64,000 nt of DNA, taken from an uncultured bacterium. Lineage in GTDB: Bacteria; Patescibacteriota; Dojkabacteria; SC72. The notes beneath the pieces were generated by a model that was not told the origin of the DNA, searched no databases, and saw only the letters and a program-made list of their open reading frames with translations. Shown here piece after piece: positions 21,270 through 60,992 of the stretch. Numbering within the stretch: the first letter of the stretch is position 1; each line of letters opens with the position of its first letter. The position numbers and the translations under genes are program-made. The stretch covers positions 58,875 to 122,874 of the forward strand of contig CAIVJR010000003.1 in assembly GCA_903906305.1 (NCBI GenBank), in the 5' to 3' direction.

Positions 21270-21341
21270 AGAAACCTATAATGAGAGAAATGGGGGAAAC
21301 AAAAGAGTATAATTAAAATATATAAGTTAAGCTAAAAAATT

Positions 21342-22133
21342 ATGGGAAATATAATCAATCCTTTAACTATGCAGATTTGGCAAAAGCTCATTAAATTACA
21401 GTTTAAAAATGGTGATATTAGTGATTTAAAAGAATTAGAAGGCGGCATTAATATTGATGAATTAAATCAGATTTTGAAAGATTTGGCAGATCAAAAACTT
21501 ATATATCTTTTGCACGAAGCTCAATTCACAAATTCAAAATATCGCGTTTCAGATTTGAAATCGCTTCAAAAGGATTATTCTATCAAGGGTCTCACAGTAC
21601 CTGAGAAAATTTTCAAAGGAGAGCAATTGCTTAATTACTTACAAGCTGCTAAATCTGCCTTGGGTGATTTGATTGCCAACACAGCTGCTCTTAAAGGGCC
21701 AAACCCTCCAGGAATTAATGTTGAATTAGCAAAAGAATACTCTCGTATAAATGGTATGCTAACAAATATACAGCAAGAGTTAATACCTGATACTTTGGAA
21801 GTTAAAACATATGATGATAAGGATAGTGACAGAACAAAGCTTCATTTTGAAATATCGAAAAAAAATGGGAATAAAATTACATTTTTAATTCAACTTAGCG
21901 GAACTTGGCTTGCCGTTAATCGTGAGATCGATATTGAAAAAATCAAAGATCATTTTAAAAATATTATTCAACAATACATTGCTTCATACTTCTTCAAATT
22001 ACCATATCATTGGTACACTTTGAGATGTATCTGTGCGAAATCTCCACATACCGAAGACGGAATAGTCGTTGGATCTTTTGAAGAGTTGGGACAACTTTCC
22101 ATTGAGGATCTCTTGTATAAAAGAGAGGTCTAA
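21342..22133 (+). CDS. Hypothetical protein
   Basis: 263-aa ORF with no motif I recognise. Followed by a UDG-like gene. Confidence 0.5.
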   Translation: MGNIINPLTMQIWQKLIKLQFKNGDISDLKELEGGINIDELNQILKDLADQKLIYLLHEAQFTNSKYRVSDLKSLQKDYSIKGLTVPEKIFKGEQLLNYLQAAKSALGDLIANTAALKGPNPPGINVELAKEYSRINGMLTNIQQELIPDTLEVKTYDDKDSDRTKLHFEISKKNGNKITFLIQLSGTWLAVNREIDIEKIKDHFKNIIQQYIASYFFKLPYHWYTLRCICAKSPHTEDGIVVGSFEELGQLSIEDLLYKREV

Positions 22134-22149
22134 TACTTTGTCGGCAATT

Positions 22150-22815
22150 ATGAATAAGGAAAACAAAATTAAATCTATCTTTGATGAAATCTACAACCTT
22201 AATATCTGTGGCAAAGATCCATTAAAAGTACATAGAGATATATCAAAAATGAATATTAATTCTAAAGTCATGGTCATAGCTGAAGCCATGGCTCCTGAAC
22301 AAGTAAGACTCTCTGGAGTAAACTATTTCTTTAAGGATGGAACTATTGGTAATACAGGAAAATCATTAGAGAAATTTTTAAACAAATTTGAATATACAGT
22401 ATATCCAGATAGACCTAATTGTGTTTACCATACAGAGATAGTACACGGATTCCCTGGATATGAGATAAAGAATGGAAAAAAATATATTAGAAGACCTACT
22501 AGGAAGGAAATACAATTTTCAATAGAGAGTGGAATATTACAAAAGGAGATAGAGATTGTACAACCTAAGTTAATATTACTAATGGGTAATACTGCATATC
22601 AATCTTTCTATACATATTTATTAGGTATTAAACCAAAGAATAACTTAACGAAAGAGATAGGGGAGATTAGTAATACAAAGGTATTTAAAAGGTATATGAA
22701 TATTCCATTAATACCCATACAACATAGTTCTGGAGCTAATCCTAGGTTTAGGGAGATGATTGAGAATAAAAAACTGATTGCCTTAATCCATTTATTAGTC
22801 GAAAAACATATTTAA
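22150..22815 (+). CDS. Uracil-DNA glycosylase superfamily protein with a divergent motif A
   Basis: VMVIAEAMAPEQVRLSGVNYFFKDG corresponds to the UDG motif A region (GEAPG..E..G.PF.G). IPIQHSSGANPRF corresponds to motif B (HPSP...R). The start is taken at the internal Met MNKENK (nt 22150), because the longer ORF overlaps the upstream gene. Confidence 0.55.
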   Translation: MNKENKIKSIFDEIYNLNICGKDPLKVHRDISKMNINSKVMVIAEAMAPEQVRLSGVNYFFKDGTIGNTGKSLEKFLNKFEYTVYPDRPNCVYHTEIVHGFPGYEIKNGKKYIRRPTRKEIQFSIESGILQKEIEIVQPKLILLMGNTAYQSFYTYLLGIKPKNNLTKEIGEISNTKVFKRYMNIPLIPIQHSSGANPRFREMIENKKLIALIHLLVEKHI

Positions 22816-23592
22816 TTGTATAATCAAACACTTATGCCATTGTTCAACTATAAAGAAAGTAAAATTGCATATTCACTTGTGGGAGAGGGAAATCCTTTAG
22901 TTCTTGTTCATGGTTTTAGTATAGATTCAAGAATGTGGAAACCACAAATTGAATTCTTCAAGAATAAATATCAAGTTATCACGTATGATATGCGTGGCTT
23001 TGGTTCTTCTTCTTTACCGATATCAAGATACAGCCACCATGATGATTTAAAGGCGTTTTTAGATTATCTAAATATAAAGAAGGTTAATATTGTAGGACTT
23101 TCACTAGGAGGAGAAATATCTCTGGACTTTACTCTCATGTATCCAGAATATGTAAACAAACTAATCCTACTTGACTCTTCACTATCTGGCTACTCTAGCA
23201 CTGTAGATTGGAACGTATATGCAAAAGAGCAAGGATTAGAGAAAGCAAAAGAAAATTGGTTAAATCATAATGTGTTCAAATCTGCGAGGAATAAACCTCT
23301 TGCATTACAACTACTTACAGAGATGGTTCATGATTATTCTGGGTGGCATTGGCTCAACTTCGATCCAAGAGAAAAACCAAAAGCAATTGAAAAACTTTCT
23401 GAAATAAAGTGTCCCGTTGAGATAATACTTGGGCAAAATGATTTAGATTATTATCATGATATAGCTAAAATCTTAAATGAAAGTATTAAAAACTCCAATT
23501 TAGATATTATTGATGATTCTGGTCACATGGTAAACCTAGAACAATCAGAAAAAACGAATCATATTATTGATGATTTCTTGCAAAATCTTTAG
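22816..23592 (+). CDS. Alpha/beta-fold hydrolase
   Basis: VLVHGFSIDSRMW...YDMRGFGSS...VGLSLGGEISL (nucleophile elbow G-L-S-L-G-G) ... DDSGHM (catalytic His region). Confidence 0.8.
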   Translation: MYNQTLMPLFNYKESKIAYSLVGEGNPLVLVHGFSIDSRMWKPQIEFFKNKYQVITYDMRGFGSSSLPISRYSHHDDLKAFLDYLNIKKVNIVGLSLGGEISLDFTLMYPEYVNKLILLDSSLSGYSSTVDWNVYAKEQGLEKAKENWLNHNVFKSARNKPLALQLLTEMVHDYSGWHWLNFDPREKPKAIEKLSEIKCPVEIILGQNDLDYYHDIAKILNESIKNSNLDIIDDSGHMVNLEQSEKTNHIIDDFLQNL

Positions 23593-24040
23593 TATTACAC
23601 ACTTTATTGACTTGCTGAGGTCAACAAGTCAATAATATCATTACTAGCAATAGGTTTTGATCACTTTGCTGACATCAGCAAGGTGTTATTTCCTTGTAAC
23701 CACGCCAATAACTCAGCAAAAACGGGTGTAAAATAAAAAAAATTGCAAAAAAGTGAGAACCTTTTAGATAGAGAATGCTAAGCGTATGCACCCCATAGTA
23801 TTAACAACCTCTTAGATAATTGATATAATACCTATGTTAATAAAAATCTATTCTATATTGTATTTTCATACATAAAGAGTAGAGCTCTTTAATAATACTG
23901 ATTAATATCAGTTATACCAGCGATAAAGTAATGGAATATTTACATAGTACATTTAGTTAATTATATATATAGTTGATTGAATGTACTATGTAATATCAAT
24001 CCAAATCATAAACAAAAGAACGAGGGAAAAAGGAGACCCA
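23593..24040. promoter_or_regulatory. Unusually long AT-rich intergenic region carrying repeated TTGCTGA/TCAGCAA half-sites in palindromic arrangements. Putative operator/promoter region, possibly a small RNA
   Basis: Perfect 11-bp inverted repeat TTATTGACTTG-N11-CAAGTCAATAA (23604-23636). Palindrome TTGCTGA-CA-TCAGCAA (23664-23680). A further TCAGCAA at 23713. Palindrome ACTGAT-TAAT-ATCAGT (23896-23911). SD AAAGGAG lies 7 nt upstream of the ATG at 24041. Confidence 0.45.
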
Positions 24041-24448
24041 ATGAATAACAAAGATATTGTCGAGATGATCATGAACCAAAGCCCATTCATTCGCATCCGT
24101 GCAAATGGAAACAGAAAGAGTATCCAATATGCAGAAATACTTGAAAAGGAATTTCAAACGGTTGATCTTTGTATTTCAAAAAGCTTTCAAATGCCATGGG
24201 CAAACTACGAAGATTTTGTTTTCCACCTTTTGGAAGAAAAAATTGTTTGGCCAAAGAATTTTCATATTGATATCTCCAGCTTGGAAACAGAAACTCGGCT
24301 TGGGCTTATCACAGACCCTAAACCGGACGCGGACGTGACTGAGGCCATTGCATTCATTGAGAAATTAATTGAATTTGGGAATTTCTCATGTAAAACAAGA
24401 CGAATTAAGGTGCCCGATGGTGGTATCGTATTAGTCTTCAAAAGATAA
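24041..24448 (+). CDS. Hypothetical small protein (135 aa)
   Basis: ORF with a canonical SD (AAAAAGGAGACCCAATG). No recognisable domain. Confidence 0.5.
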   Translation: MNNKDIVEMIMNQSPFIRIRANGNRKSIQYAEILEKEFQTVDLCISKSFQMPWANYEDFVFHLLEEKIVWPKNFHIDISSLETETRLGLITDPKPDADVTEAIAFIEKLIEFGNFSCKTRRIKVPDGGIVLVFKR

Positions 24449-24557
24449 TAACTCAGAGATCTCCAGCCCAAACCATATCCATATATGGACATCACAAAAT
24501 CTTTATCGCTGGTAATCTCTCAAATTGATACAAACAATTGTAATAATTTGAGATATG

Positions 24558-27086
24558 TTATCTCCCCAATATCAACTTCGTCTCTTCCTCAGATACAACC
24601 TTTCTAGCCTCTGCAATATCCTCAGCACAAACAGAAACACCATATACCCCTGCTTGTACACAATGCCTTAATAATGGCTTACAATCCTCTACAATACATA
24701 TAATCTTGTTATCATGATCCTTAGCCATATCTAAAACATTATCAACTATCCTAAATACGCTATTCCTACTCAAATCATACTTAGCATTCTCATCATTAAT
24801 CTTAAACCCTTGCATCTGTTTAGCAATACGAGGGATATTAAGGATAAGGCCATCAATCTTAGTATTAAGAATATCATCAGCAAGAATAATCTCAGAAGGA
24901 TTATCCAATATTGCATAAACCTTGAAAGAAGAAGTTCTTCTTAAGCCTTCACCAGAAAGTTGTTTCTTAAACTCCTTCATCATATCCTCATTCATAGGGG
25001 AGTGAAGCGCAATCGAAACATTCCTCTTCTTGTAAATATTCCTTATTCTCTTAACAATCTTAATAGTTCTCTTAAGTAATTCTAGGTTATTTACATAGTG
25101 TGTAGCCCCATATATCTCACTTGAAAGTGTTTGATCTTCAAACTCTTTACCTCTGGTTAAACTCTTAAACTGACCAATAGTGGCCGAACCAATGGAGAGA
25201 ACTACCTCGTTACCTTCGGCTAGTTCAACATACTTTATGACTTTCTCAGAAATCTTAGCAGCATAGTCTAGGAACTTACGATCTTCAACATATGCTAAAA
25301 GATGACGACCCTCATCAAGCATGATTTCATCAAGATCAACATATACCAAACCATGAGCATTACCAACAAAATCAATTAATTTACTTGGCTCTACATTTGT
25401 CATACTAAATACTCTAGTAGCAGAGGGAGGTAGGGTAGTATCCTTAGCAACCTTAAGTGCGGGTTCTTCAACCTTAACTTCCTCTTCTTGAGTCTTCATA
25501 AAGTCGATACCATCACCATATGTATTAACCACAGGATGTACCTCTTCCTTAGCAACGTCTTTGTAAACACTACCTGTATTACCATCAATCTTAACCATAT
25601 CGCCATCCTTAAGAAGAGTAGAGGCATTTGTAGCACCAACAATAGCTGGAATCTTGAACTCTCTACAAAGAATAGCTGTATCACTTGTAATACCACCAAA
25701 GTCCATAATGACACCACCACAAGGAATAATCATGGATTCCATTTCTGTGGAATACTTCTTAATCAAAAGAATATCATTCTTGGTATACAATTTTCCATTT
25801 GGTTGATCAACTACAGCTATCTTACCAACAACCACACCAAAGCTAGCACCAATACCAGTTATAAGAAGGTCTTCCTTACTCAATTGTTGAGCATTCTGAA
25901 TCTCTTCTCGCTTGGTCTTAGCTGCATTTATGAGGTTCTCAATCTTCCCACCCAATCCAGTATTTTGTTTCATTACCATTCTTTGAGCATCACTCACAGC
26001 TTGAGTAGCAAACATCTCTTGAGTCTTGTATTTGTCTAAGAATGCTACTACTAAATCTCTTAATGATTTTCTTGGCATTTCCATTTCAGATACCTTAACA
26101 CGATATTGCATAACATCAGAGAGTAGGGACTTGTTTTGTAATACCCAAGCTCTACCACCAGAAATTACCCATTCAATGTTTTGTGGCATTCTAGATTTGT
26201 TTTCAATGATTAACGCAATCTTAGAAATCTCTTGGATATCCTTGTCGTTTAACTTTTGTTTGTGACTCCAACCCGCTGATATCTTAATCTTCTCCTCATT
26301 ACCTCTTCTTCCTCTTGAAGGATTCATTGTCCTAATCTTCATCCATTCTTGTGGAGCAATGTGCTTTTCAAGAATAGCAAGATCACGCTTGTTTAAAAGA
26401 TATGAATCAGGTGTAACTTCTCCAGTAGATATGACATCACCAAGACCGTATACGGCTTCAATACCTAATTTCGTATCATCTTGAGTAATTGGATCTACTG
26501 TAAATACCACACCTGATATCTCTGCTTGAACCATCTTCTGTACAACGACAGCAAGCTTAACTTCAGCAAGATCGATATCCATTTTGTTAGCATATGCCAC
26601 AACATCATCAGTGAAGAGGGAACCATATACCTTCTTTATTGCACTCTTTAAATCATCATATTTTCGAACATTGAGTTCTGTGCTAAATATTCCACTAAAA
26701 GATATATTGTCATTGGCTGGGAATACTACAGAGGATCGTACAGATACCCAAGCATCAGAAAAACCAGAAAGTCGGGTATATGCACTAAGAATATCTTCTT
26801 GTACTTCTTTAGAGAATTCTTCATCTAACAGAGCTTTTAATACTTCTTCATTTTCAGGATTCTTACCTTTCTCTAGTAGTTTTTCTTTTCTGTCATGTAA
26901 CGCTTTAGTACAAAATTCGGTATATACATTACTTGCAACTACAAAAAATTCAGGAACTGGGACATCCATTTCTTTAAGAGTGAAAAGACTGAGACCTTTT
27001 CGGCCTACCTTGTTTTCATTCAATTCTTTAGCTGAGAAATCTTCAAAAAAGAATATATTGTTCTTTCTTGGTATTGAATTTTCCAT
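24558..27086 (-). CDS. PEP synthase/pyruvate phosphate dikinase-like protein (PEP-utilising enzyme family). Phospho-His position reads Asp
   Basis: N-terminal PPDK_N/ATP-grasp-like region (GRKGLSLFTLKEMDVPVPEFFVV...). Central swivel-domain motif GGITSDTAILCREFKIPAIVG, where the family consensus is GGRTSHAAI.ARE.GIPAVVG. The large C-terminal domain is unassigned. Confidence 0.6.
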   Translation of the reverse strand: MENSIPRKNNIFFFEDFSAKELNENKVGRKGLSLFTLKEMDVPVPEFFVVASNVYTEFCTKALHDRKEKLLEKGKNPENEEVLKALLDEEFSKEVQEDILSAYTRLSGFSDAWVSVRSSVVFPANDNISFSGIFSTELNVRKYDDLKSAIKKVYGSLFTDDVVAYANKMDIDLAEVKLAVVVQKMVQAEISGVVFTVDPITQDDTKLGIEAVYGLGDVISTGEVTPDSYLLNKRDLAILEKHIAPQEWMKIRTMNPSRGRRGNEEKIKISAGWSHKQKLNDKDIQEISKIALIIENKSRMPQNIEWVISGGRAWVLQNKSLLSDVMQYRVKVSEMEMPRKSLRDLVVAFLDKYKTQEMFATQAVSDAQRMVMKQNTGLGGKIENLINAAKTKREEIQNAQQLSKEDLLITGIGASFGVVVGKIAVVDQPNGKLYTKNDILLIKKYSTEMESMIIPCGGVIMDFGGITSDTAILCREFKIPAIVGATNASTLLKDGDMVKIDGNTGSVYKDVAKEEVHPVVNTYGDGIDFMKTQEEEVKVEEPALKVAKDTTLPPSATRVFSMTNVEPSKLIDFVGNAHGLVYVDLDEIMLDEGRHLLAYVEDRKFLDYAAKISEKVIKYVELAEGNEVVLSIGSATIGQFKSLTRGKEFEDQTLSSEIYGATHYVNNLELLKRTIKIVKRIRNIYKKRNVSIALHSPMNEDMMKEFKKQLSGEGLRRTSSFKVYAILDNPSEIILADDILNTKIDGLILNIPRIAKQMQGFKINDENAKYDLSRNSVFRIVDNVLDMAKDHDNKIICIVEDCKPLLRHCVQAGVYGVSVCAEDIAEARKVVSEEETKLILGR

Positions 27087-38473: not shown

Positions 38474-38536
38474 GCTGTTGAAAAAGAGCAATATATCGAA
38501 TATAATCCAAGATTGATAATATAAATATTTAAAGCA

Positions 38537-38716
38537 ATGGGAGCACTTCCAAAAAGAAAAATTTCAAGTAGCGTACGTGGACAAAGACGATCACACAATG
38601 CACTTAAAGTTACAGGTATGTCAAAATGTCCAAAATGCGGAAACGTAAAACGAGCACATTTTGCATGTCCATCATGTGGTTTTTACAAAGAAAAGAAAGA
38701 AACTAAAAAATCATAA
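38537..38716 (+). CDS. rpmF: 50S ribosomal protein L32 (zinc-ribbon type)
   Basis: 59-aa ORF not in the supplied track: MGALPKRKISSSVRGQRRSHNALK...CPKCG...HFACPSCGFY. L32 N-terminus plus CxxC...CxxC. Confidence 0.85.
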   Translation: MGALPKRKISSSVRGQRRSHNALKVTGMSKCPKCGNVKRAHFACPSCGFYKEKKETKKS

Positions 38717-38722
38717 TAATAT

Positions 38723-58789: not shown

Positions 58790-58814
58790 ATATATATATT
58801 GTAAATGTTAAATC

Positions 58815-59018
58815 TTACAAAATCCTTACAATTTTAAAATCTTTTACAGCACCATTTTCAACAGAGGCAATCGTCTCCTTGTAGAGTTGATCATATGTTA
58901 ACCCTATTGGATACTTGATTTTGTTCTTCTCCAATTGCTTAATCAGATGCTCCAACTTAACATTCATCTTTTCCATGTTAAGAGCCATTTTGTTAATATC
59001 CATGATGTTGATATTCAT
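58815..59018 (-). CDS. Hypothetical small protein
   Basis: 67-aa ORF in the same orientation as 58415-58789. Confidence 0.3.
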   Translation of the reverse strand: MNINIMDINKMALNMEKMNVKLEHLIKQLEKNKIKYPIGLTYDQLYKETIASVENGAVKDFKIVRIL

Positions 59019-59131
59019 AATATTTCTCCTAACAATTTATATATATCCTAAGTATATCCCTTTGAAAATATATTTCATGACCTAAAATATGATATACACA
59101 TCTTGTAATATTTTTAGGATATAATGGTGGA

Positions 59132-60590: not shown

Positions 60591-60692
60591 TCTCACCATA
60601 TCCCTCCCGCGTACGTAGTCCTATAGTATTGACGTATTCTCAAATTATTGCTATAATGTAGGCGTAATAAATTAAATTCTTATTCACTAATT

Positions 60693-60923
60693 ATGAAGAA
60701 GATACAAAATATATTACTTAGCACTTTGACATCGTTAACAATCCTATCCGTAAATGCTGTTTCAGTATTTGCAGATGGTGGAGACCCATATGTACCACAT
60801 AAACCTATTGATACAGGTTTCGCAGATCTAGAAACAATAGTTCTTGTTGGTATCGTATTATATGCTGTAGGTGTTTCATTTATAGCATTCTCTCAGTTAA
60901 TGAAGAACAAGTTTGTAAAGTAA
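60693..60923 (+). CDS. Tiny secreted protein with a sorting-signal-like C-terminus
   Basis: 76 aa. Signal peptide (..SVNAVSVFA|DGG). A short mature segment containing PHKPIDTGF, then a TM helix and a basic tail KNKFVK. A strong terminator follows. Confidence 0.55.
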   Translation: MKKIQNILLSTLTSLTILSVNAVSVFADGGDPYVPHKPIDTGFADLETIVLVGIVLYAVGVSFIAFSQLMKNKFVK

Positions 60924-60934
60924 TAAACAGATAA

Positions 60935-60959
60935 AGACCCTCGAAAGAGGGTCTTTTTG
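60935..60959 (+). terminator. Rho-independent terminator
   Basis: AGACCCTC-GAAA-GAGGGTCT followed by TTTTTG. Confidence 0.8.
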
Positions 60960-60992
60960 TTTAATTATTCTCTTTTGTGCTAAAATTACACC

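Follow-up and report, generated by a model that had tools for sequence, protein, structure and literature searches.

A conserved frame of predicted, structured untranslated regions around a hypervariable orphan gene in an uncultured Dojkabacteria bacterium

Introduction

In a 64,000-nucleotide stretch of DNA (the window) from an uncultured bacterium of the Dojkabacteria (Patescibacteriota; assembly GCA_903906305.1, contig CAIVJR010000003.1), we studied a non-coding gap at positions 23593-24040, the small open reading frame (ORF) that follows it and the 3' untranslated region (UTR) behind that ORF. A first, sequence-only reading had singled out the gap for four copies of TTGCTGA/TCAGCAA arranged as palindromes. 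Judged against related loci, the gap is a composite of predicted terminator hairpins (23604-23695), a deletion scar (23696-23790) and a promoter with a structured leader (23801-24040). Only the right part of this composite is unusual; the flagged TTGCTGA palindromes are ordinary, namely a terminator beside a scar of gene loss. Our reading of the locus as a whole, to which we assign a probability of roughly 60%, is that leader and 3'UTR form a cis-regulatory frame which would work like those of the icaR or hok mRNAs and which surrounds an orphan gene under balanced polymorphism.

Results

The gap of about 450 bp proved to be real: the upstream alpha/beta-hydrolase gene has its stop codon at 23592, and for the following ORF the most likely start is ATG 24041, in front of which stands a strong Shine-Dalgarno sequence, GGAG at 24032-24035. 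This orphan ORF (24041-24448, + strand) encodes 135 aa and represents the allele that we call class A. A longer ORF of 155 aa from ATG 23981, the start chosen by the gene caller, was rejected because of in-frame stops in three related loci (L004, L009 and L010; relatives carry L-numbers throughout). Gene callers hence place the start of the small ORF 60 nt too early, within the right arm of a leader hairpin (P2, see below). The host is low in GC (~33%), gene-dense and uses TGA as a stop codon, and the genes beside the locus comprise the hydrolase, a UDG-family gene and a PEP-synthase-like gene on the minus strand (24558-27086). On a crude ORF map of the window, about 94% of the DNA is coding and the median intergenic gap is 51 nt; only four gaps of at least 200 nt exist besides the one studied, one of them being an artefact of ORF choice.

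Related loci were collected by several routes. A search of 5.8 billion proteins with the ORF product returned two relatives, and a profile search of 1.84 billion representatives returned one further genuine relative. In L001, a 66%-identical relative on a short contig, leader and 3'UTR were much closer to the window than the coding sequence. JGI metagenomes searched with a 27-nt leader motif yielded seven true loci (L004-L010), a protein search with another allelic class (class C) yielded L011, located on a 175-kb contig of the NCBI metagenome-assembled genome GCA_964403155.1, together with L012-L017, and the window's own ORF used as query recovered an identical locus in four more assemblies. 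A scan of genome contigs with a 20-nt leader motif gave only a chance match inside an unrelated gene (L003), and two viral scans gave no match. The resulting data set is confined to a single narrow clade, in which three lineages supply ~12 distinct loci (WIN denotes the window locus). Promoter, leader, Shine-Dalgarno sequence, ORF and a 66-nt 3'UTR block are common to all loci, and most also share a terminal hairpin. When 130 kb were searched with a covariance model of the leader core, each locus yielded a single copy, so this is not a repeated family in that DNA, and neither the gap nor the 3'UTR had a further BLAST match within the window. Searching Rfam (Rfam 15) with the region and with the divergent L011 locus gave only chance matches to miRNA-precursor hairpins, far below the gathering score, and on the whole window Rfam reported tRNA-Val only.

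The right part of the gap begins with a sigma-70-type promoter on the + strand (23801-23829; TTAACA, a 17-nt spacer and TG-n-TATAAT, that is, an extended -10 element). It matches 11 of 12 consensus positions plus the TG, is the best site in the region and is present in every related locus. Transcription is predicted to start near 23836, and the leader of ~205 nt contains three hairpins, P0, P1 and P2. The promoter had been overlooked by the sequence-only reading, as had the 27+27-nt inverted repeat at 23940-23993 and a 14-nt complement of the leader at 24501-24514.

P0 (23847-23883, + strand) is located near the 5' end of the leader and carries compensatory double changes in two pairs (U-A to C-G in L004/L009 and A-U to G-C in L010), with 96.5% of its alignment cells paired. 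It is dispensable, being missing in L001 and represented by a small hairpin instead in L011. P1 (23897-23912, + strand) is the palindrome ACTGAT-TAAT-ATCAGT. Its stem is invariant and its loop variable (TAAT, TAAA); the hairpin has grown to 8 bp in L001 and, through a 33-nt insertion, to ~14+5 bp in L011. Such a hairpin of variable length on a fixed base fits an RNA element. P2 (23940-23993, + strand) is a hairpin of 27 bp whose (TA)n apex differs in length between loci. All four of its non-Watson-Crick positions are G.U when read on the + strand, and an A to G polymorphism in four loci also yields G.U. In the alignment 98.6% of P2 cells are paired, four one-sided changes retain pairing and one A-U pair is swapped to U-A (L011). 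At the apex (23958-23975), length and interruptions of the (TA)n tract vary by strain (TATATATA, TATATA, TATATCTATA, TATATATATAAATA), as slippage would give.

Folding of the leader gives a z score of -5.5 for the + strand compared with -2.9 for the minus strand. Over all hairpins, 98.2% of alignment cells are paired, as opposed to 27-43% when the partners are slid against each other. The pattern of substitutions shows that the predicted leader hairpins respect pairing in a + strand RNA. The suggestion that the gap might encode a structured small RNA was half right: structured RNA is indicated, but in the other half of the gap from the TTGCTGA palindromes, the ACTGAT palindrome being P1 of a 5' leader, and what is found there is a UTR and not a free-standing small RNA.

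Downstream of P2 follows a variable A-rich linker with the Shine-Dalgarno sequence (23994-24040, + strand), ending in GGG-(A-rich)-GGAG-A-CCC (24024-24039). The arrangement GGG-AAAAAGGAGA-CCC around the Shine-Dalgarno sequence recurs in most loci and could form a 3-bp GGG/CCC mini-hairpin presenting GGAG in its loop. In L015, GGAG faces CUCC directly instead. Two alternative readings of the leader were rejected, namely a 9-codon upstream ORF (ATG 23932), whose frame is shifted by a 1-nt deletion in L011, and a CATAGTA link between the vicinity of the promoter and P2, both copies of which change independently. A promoter scan found no minus-strand promoter-like site in the UTRs.

On the far side of the ORF lies the 66-nt 3'UTR core (24455-24520, + strand), which consists of AGAGAT, an anti-Shine-Dalgarno-like CUCC (24461-24464), CCAGC, a hairpin termed P3 (24473-24488, + strand), the 14-nt segment IR-R (24501-24514, + strand; CTTTATCGCTGGTA) and ATCTCT. 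IR-R is the exact reverse complement of IR-L (23915-23928, + strand; TACCAGCGATAAAG), a segment within the most conserved stretch of the leader (23912-23939). The two would form the 3' and 5' strands of a long-range duplex between 5'UTR and 3'UTR with an energy of -22.6 kcal/mol, and this duplex is part of the minimum-energy fold, with a pair probability of at least 0.97, in six full-length mRNAs carrying different ORF classes. Complementarity is held at 14-15 bp in all 10 distinct loci for which both ends are available (15 bp in L002). In L001 and L011 the register of the helix is shifted by 2 bp, its length of 14 bp being unchanged because the two pairs lost on one side (GGTA to GGGA) are made up by two new ones on the opposite side (AT-CTTT to TA-CTTT), and a C to T change within IR-R of L015 turns a G-C into a G.U pair. 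We predict the helix on the grounds that exact complementarity of this length beside the same gene is improbable and that it is joined by conservation and favourable thermodynamics.

The 3'UTR block starts with the anti-Shine-Dalgarno-like sequence UCUCC(AG)CCC. Ensemble folds pair UCUCC with the Shine-Dalgarno sequence at probabilities of 0.95 in WIN, 0.93 in L006 and 0.52 in L001. We treat this predicted pairing as a lead only. A second helix of 4-5 bp between UGGA of the leader and the 3'UTR was discarded as inconsistent across loci. The last element is a terminal hairpin (24519-24552, strand unassigned; CTCAAATT...AATTTGAG) between the small ORF and the convergent PEP-synthase-like gene. 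It is 97-100% identical in L004, L006, L007 and L010 and missing in L001 and L011, where the 3'UTR core almost abuts the stop codon of the convergent gene. This hairpin is likely a terminator.

To compare the frame with its surroundings we used L011, the most diverged relative. Between WIN and L011, identity is 96% in the IR-L stretch (23912-23939), 90% in the promoter, 89% in P2 and 87% in the 3'UTR core, compared with 65-75% in four neighbouring genes and 64-78% in three other intergenic regions. The P0 region (25%), the linker (50%) and the ORF itself (39%) are far less similar. Relative to loci other than L011, the 3'UTR core of the window is 91-99% identical. Between WIN and L006, leader and 3'UTR are 95-97% identical, with 30% of synonymous sites of the adjacent gene being different. 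These comparisons show the frame, as aligned here, to be under purifying constraint.

The ORF enclosed by this frame is hypervariable. Three allelic classes occupy the same position: class A (134-135 aa; WIN, L001, L002, L005, L010), class B (138 aa; L006, L008) and class C (157 aa; L004, L007, L009/L015, L011, L014). Classes A and B are homologous (hhalign probability 97%, E 1e-11), and homology of class C to A and B could not be demonstrated by sequence. A joint alignment of all three classes is colinear and raises the AlphaFold confidence (pLDDT) from an unusable 44 for class A alone to 77, which suggests that the three classes may share one fold. The predicted arrangement is alpha-beta3-alpha-beta2-alpha-beta2 (model med533f55194b), and the product would be a soluble alpha/beta protein. 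Pfam, PHROG and PADLOC returned no family match for it, and a 12-bit match to a 'homing endonuclease' was dismissed. Searches with class A, class C, all classes together and a profile (5.8 and 1.84 billion proteins) found only the family's own alleles plus a spurious repeat protein (P0003). Foldseek of the pLDDT-77 model against PDB and BFVD gave no match at E of 0.001 or below; the weak top matches were all to PCNA or beta-clamp domains (E ~0.02, TM ~0.27), are not significant and are not relied on here. The locus lies among DNA-repair genes (mutS, UDG, UvrA-like, DinD-like). A weak tblastn match of class C at 58851-59012 falls into a low-complexity ORF of 67 aa and was likewise dismissed.

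Within classes, the ratio of nonsynonymous to synonymous divergence (dN/dS) is 0.16-0.21 at dS values of 0.5-3, compared with dS values of 0.03-0.38 for the flanking genes. Deeply diverged classes occur even in strains whose flanking genes are 97-99% identical; in L007, for instance, the adjacent gene is 99.4% shared with the window, yet the allele is of class C. Linker variants are shuffled with respect to class, one being shared by WIN (class A) and L008 (class B) and another by L004 (class C) and L010 (class A). Similarity between alleles ends after ATGAATAA and returns 5-10 nt past the stop codon. Divergence, dN/dS, mosaic pattern and sharp boundaries together argue that the alleles are ancient and functional and that recombination swaps them at the borders of the coding sequence. 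This pattern of alleles points to balancing or frequency-dependent selection acting on the protein. The variation spans the whole ORF and the flanks have no further copy; the reverse transcriptase of a diversity-generating retroelement and the integrase of an integron cassette are both missing from the flanking genes of L011 and L015, where this was checked.

Recurrent recombination might by itself make the flanks alike. If alleles are moved by homologous recombination with tracts that end in the flanks, leader and 3'UTR could be conserved without any RNA function, and the mosaic of allele classes and linker variants, the occurrence of unrelated alleles in near-identical strains and a long-range helix that shows no covariation all fit such a process. 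We nonetheless consider it unlikely. In cross-lineage comparisons within one class, the ORF is far more diverged than the flanks (L001 and L010: ORF synonymous divergence pS 0.36, flanks 5-9%), and since the ORF is more diverged than both of its flanks, one transfer tract is unable to account for both. Conservation is moreover block-wise, with the IR-L stretch, P2 and the 3' core kept and with P0, linker and loop sizes free, and substitutions respect pairing.

A different explanation concerns the 14-nt inverted repeats as DNA sites, either as crossover points of a recombinase (inversion or exchange, serving as a phase switch or cassette dock) or as paired operators that form a loop. The repeats are exact, they flank a 572-bp segment that contains the entire ORF with the promoter outside, this insert is replaced by unrelated alleles between strains and neither 14-mer varies, which is what one would expect of sequence-specific sites. 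We regard this explanation as quite improbable, given that all ~18 independent assemblies show a single orientation, with inversion predicting an inverted junction such as CAGTTATACCAGCGATAAAGATTTTGTGATGTCC, and that allele boundaries lie at the start codon and just past the stop and not at the repeats, beyond which conservation also reaches far. In addition, no recombinase family occurs among the precomputed Pfam matches within 10 kb on either side of L011 and L015, and the C to T change of L015 is a mismatch in DNA which remains a G.U pair in RNA.

The left part of the gap contains the palindromes for which the gap had been flagged, and all of them are present with coordinates within 1 nt of those given before. 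The inverted repeat TTATTGACTTG/CAAGTCAATAA belongs to a larger repeat with 15-nt arms (23604-23618/23621-23635), TTGCTGA-CA-TCAGCAA is part of an 11-bp stem (23662-23685), a further TCAGCAA lies at 23713-23719, and ACTGAT-TAAT-ATCAGT is P1. The four TTGCTGA copies form a strong local cluster (four in 108 nt, both strands) but are not independent. Two are both arms of one hairpin, hp2. The third lies in hp1, a duplicate that has diverged from hp2 (the two share a 17-nt direct repeat at 82% identity), and the fourth, at 23713, is not conserved, relatives reading TTAGCAA, CCCCAAA or CTCAAAC at this place. The window as a whole contains 17 copies of TTGCTGA on both strands, with 11.2 expected, and the full palindrome has no other site at two or fewer mismatches in these 64 kb.

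The hairpin hp2 (23662-23695, + strand) comprises the stem CACTTTGCTGA / TCAGCAAGGTG and the tail TTATTTCCTT, and we read it as a predicted intrinsic (Rho-independent) terminator. A short loop closes the stem of 10-11 pairs, which include five G-C pairs, the tail is rich in U, and a terminator scan found hp2 to be the sole terminator-like site in 23000-24800 (1.8 kb). Relatives carry the module CACTTTGCTGA-nn-TCAGCAAGGTG-TTATTTCCTTGTAACCACGCCAATA, always on the + strand. L006 and L008 have two copies, one following a 162-aa gene and the other preceding a LysE-family gene, and a single copy is present in L007 and likewise in L011/L012/L013. The stem of L007 reads TTTCCGA/TCGGAAA, with compensatory changes from G-C to U-A and from U-A to C-G, and that of L011 reads TTGTTGA/TCAACAA, with changes from C-G to U-A and from U.G to C-G. 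Across the five variants of hp2, the stem is kept by compensatory or wobble-repairing changes, the loop dinucleotide is free and TTATTT follows every time; folding energies range from -13.5 to -19 kcal/mol, the + strand folding at least as well as the minus strand. Pairing that is kept as the sequence changes, an adjoining TTATTT and a fixed strand are the signature of an RNA hairpin terminator and not of a sequence-specific DNA site. With known Rho-independent terminators hp2 shares the covarying G-C-containing stem, the short loop and the U-rich tail. It lies downstream of a co-oriented gene in the window, in L006/L008 and in L007. Unlike known terminators, it has TTATTT as its tail in place of an unbroken T run, is followed by a conserved 15-nt box (GTAACCACGCCAATA) and belongs to a locally duplicated module. 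It is also kept in L011, where the upstream gene is divergent and no upstream + strand gene is available to be terminated, a point that counts against our reading.

The role of the second hairpin, hp1 (23604-23635, strand unassigned), is ambiguous. It is an inverted repeat with 15-nt arms and one mismatch, has a TTGCTGA copy at 23612-23618, folds at -17.4 kcal/mol on the minus and -13.1 kcal/mol on the + strand, and is a decayed duplicate of hp2. It overlaps a promoter-like sequence, TTGACT-18-AATAAT (23607-23636), that matches 10 of 12 consensus positions. With hp2 as its terminator, this site could drive a tiny gene for a small RNA of ~48 nt (transcript ~23643-23692). Both hexamers and their 18-nt spacing survive in L006 and L011 despite the decay of hp1 pairing, the terminator lies within 50 nt of the promoter and the L011 module persists without an upstream gene. 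A gene of this kind is nevertheless hard to credit, as conservation in L011 does not extend to the 25-nt stretch between promoter and hp2, which would be the single-stranded body of the RNA, five loci have no such module and Rfam gives no match.

The proposal of the sequence-only reading that the TTGCTGA/TCAGCAA palindromes are operators of a dimeric regulator controlling the downstream small ORF is very improbable, its supports being the cluster of half-sites itself with its palindromic symmetry and the position of the L011 module, which precedes the -35 box by no more than 64 nt within a divergent intergenic region, and the evidence against it being that the module is separable from the promoter and therefore not the operator of the small ORF (it is missing in five relatives that keep promoter, leader and ORF, namely L004, L005, L009/L015, L010 and L014, a whole LysE-family gene separates the two in L006, L007 and L008, and the distance from module to -35 box varies from 64 nt to ~950 nt), that the half-sites TTGCTGA, TTTCCGA and TTGTTGA change together with their partner arms so that pairing is kept and sequence is not, that a T.G pair is meaningful only in + strand RNA with TTATTT invariably next to it, and that the fourth copy is not conserved, the motif is unique in the window and no regulator gene is adjacent.

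Between the terminator module and the promoter lies a scar. Positions 23696-23761 (+ strand) contain the conserved GTAACCACGCCAATA... and then become degenerate, including the unconserved TCAGCAA at 23713. This stretch, comprising the tail of the module and a relic of the region upstream of a LysE-family gene, aligns with the two module copies of L006/L008 and with the L007 copy, and in L006/L008 and L007 the matching stretch leads into a LysE-like promoter (TTCACA-17-TATAAA) and start codon. It is followed by the deletion scar proper (23762-23790, + strand), in which the remnant of a LysE-family exporter gene, its final 15 nt (TTTTAGATAGAGAAT, stop included; 23762-23776), is joined to the downstream spacer. 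In L007 and L008, ...GAAGTGTTTTTTAGATAGAGAAT... stands at the 3' end of a LysE-like ORF of 206 aa, immediately before CCCCATAGTATTAACA. On this alignment, the window is a locus that has lost the predicted exporter gene still present in relatives and has kept its upstream region and last 15 nt. Much of the length of the gap is explained by this loss. In the relatives that retain the gene (L006 3430-3470; L007, L008), TTCACA-17-TG-n-TATAAA ends ~5 nt before the ATG, which suggests that the LysE-like mRNA may be leaderless or nearly so.

Further observations concern the wider surroundings. The stretch from mutS to the small ORF (window 21270-23592; L004-L016) is a hot spot of gene flux, and the genes that differ by strain include UDG, the alpha/beta-hydrolase, the LysE-family exporter, a UvrA-like ATPase, a DinD-like fragment, a PNPOx-like 162-aa gene, DUF3800 and small minus-strand ORFs with a GLSFNEAILFWGLT motif. 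For the UDG-family ORF, the listed start at TTG 22069 produces an overlap with the 263-aa ORF before it; relatives begin with MNKQEKLQ, for which the equivalent start in the window is ATG 22150. Within the 3' end of the hydrolase gene, the 15-nt sequence ATATTATTGATGATT is present as an exact direct repeat (23504-23518 and 23561-23575) and encodes (D)IIDD twice. The other gaps of more than 200 nt in the window are 38474-38722, 58790-59131 and 60591-60992, the last of which contains a 76-aa ORF (60693-60923) resembling a small membrane or secreted protein.

Discussion

If the conserved flanks act as a cis-regulatory UTR frame, as we propose, the locus may be pictured as follows. A single + strand transcript would run from ~23836 to ~24555, as deduced from the positions of promoter and terminator, and leader and 66-nt 3'UTR block would form one cis-acting RNA frame. 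The 14-bp helix 23915-23928/24501-24514 would close the mRNA into a loop, with P2 just inside its 5' side and P3 just inside its 3' side, and closure of the loop would put UCUCC at the start of the 3'UTR block within reach of the Shine-Dalgarno sequence. Such a frame could set the stability of the mRNA, its translation or both, either through an inert closed form or by offering a target for a double-strand-specific ribonuclease (RNase) at the 27-bp P2. The orphan, a protein of 135-157 aa with at least three ancient allelic classes, is, as the pattern of alleles shows, swapped between near-identical strains by homologous recombination, for which the breakpoints fall within the earliest codons and a few nt beyond the stop. 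The locus would thus combine purifying selection on the frame with balancing or frequency-dependent selection on its product.

Several points weigh against this picture. P2 contains three singleton A.C mismatches and is conserved in sequence and not just in pairing, a degree of conservation that might equally reflect a protein- or DNA-level site. In the long-range helix, 11 of 14 pairs never vary, so covariation is silent either way, and a local alternative at the 3' end (AGAGAT/ATCTCT together with CCAGC/GCTGG) is equally invariant. Pairing between Shine-Dalgarno and anti-Shine-Dalgarno sequences is predicted in three of nine loci only and not in the other six, and the energy of this duplex is no better than that of composition-matched shuffles (z -0.1 to -2.3). 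Transcription start, transcript ends and pairing in vivo have all been deduced from the DNA sequence, and the set of related loci described above is shallow.

The closest parallel is the icaR mRNA of Staphylococcus aureus, in which 5'UTR and 3'UTR base-pair and the 3'UTR directly pairs with the Shine-Dalgarno region (PMC3868564). As in icaR, a conserved 3'UTR segment is complementary to the mRNA's own 5'UTR, an anti-Shine-Dalgarno-like pyrimidine motif (here UCUCC) is present in the 3'UTR and a long double-stranded region could serve a double-strand-specific RNase. Unlike icaR, the locus has its strong 14-bp helix some 100 nt ahead of the Shine-Dalgarno sequence, which again speaks against too close an analogy, and pairing with the Shine-Dalgarno sequence itself is a weak and inconsistent prediction. 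The two systems have no sequence similarity, and the present one is known from sequence and predicted folds alone. Long-range pairing between mRNA ends has also been described for the hok mRNA of hok/Sok, whose 3' end folds back onto its 5' end (fbi-tac; PMC9841398), and for the Bacillus subtilis hbs mRNA with its interaction of 5'- and 3'-UTR (PMC5737220). In these mRNAs, as predicted for our locus, pairing of the ends encloses the coding region, and in hok and hbs the mRNA is thereby kept inert or stable. In contrast to both, the paired segments found here are internal to the UTRs and not at the extreme ends. The predicted product, a soluble protein of 135-157 aa, also differs from the small membrane toxin of hok, and no promoter of an antisense RNA is seen; the locus shows neither the small hydrophobic toxin nor the cis-antisense RNA of a type I toxin-antitoxin system.

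With respect to its alleles, the locus can be set beside other polymorphic loci. Conserved flanks around diverged alleles are a feature of pherotype and agr-type loci and of the pilE expression site with its 3' Sma/Cla repeat, and T4-type phages have 'mobile regulatory cassettes' composed of a promoter plus stem-loop. The locus described here has in common with such systems the sharp boundaries, the near-identical flanks around unrelated or saturated alleles, the mosaic flanks and the implied recombination. It differs from them in that no silent or second copies are found in the 64 kb of the window and 66 kb of related DNA, no partner gene is present, the predicted product is cytoplasmic and the flanks are structured UTRs. 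On comparative sequence evidence, the UTR frame with its hypervariable orphan varies known themes in a way that has not been described before.

A more far-reaching version of the proposed frame, which we consider rather unlikely, would see in it a self-contained expression dock. Promoter, closed-loop mRNA scaffold with its 14-bp helix, 27-bp hairpin, anti-Shine-Dalgarno sequence and terminator would then remain constant across species, so that recombination could insert one or another of numerous unrelated alleles of a self/non-self or defence-type protein and bring each under the same tight post-transcriptional control. If true, this would be a population-level counterpart of the expression sites known from antigenic variation, built from RNA structure.

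Conclusion

In the neighbourhood of this locus, the best-conserved sequence across species is a non-coding frame without an Rfam match, and the alleles of the gene inside it predate the genomes in which they are found. If the predicted closed-loop mRNA is real, an example from an uncultured bacterial lineage would be added to the very few bacterial 5'UTR-3'UTR interactions, and control of this kind would be linked to a locus under balancing selection. The locus would then also offer a compact model of ~730 nt for uncoupling regulatory RNA from the turnover of alleles. As for the orphan family itself, its polymorphism suggests a role in conflict or recognition.

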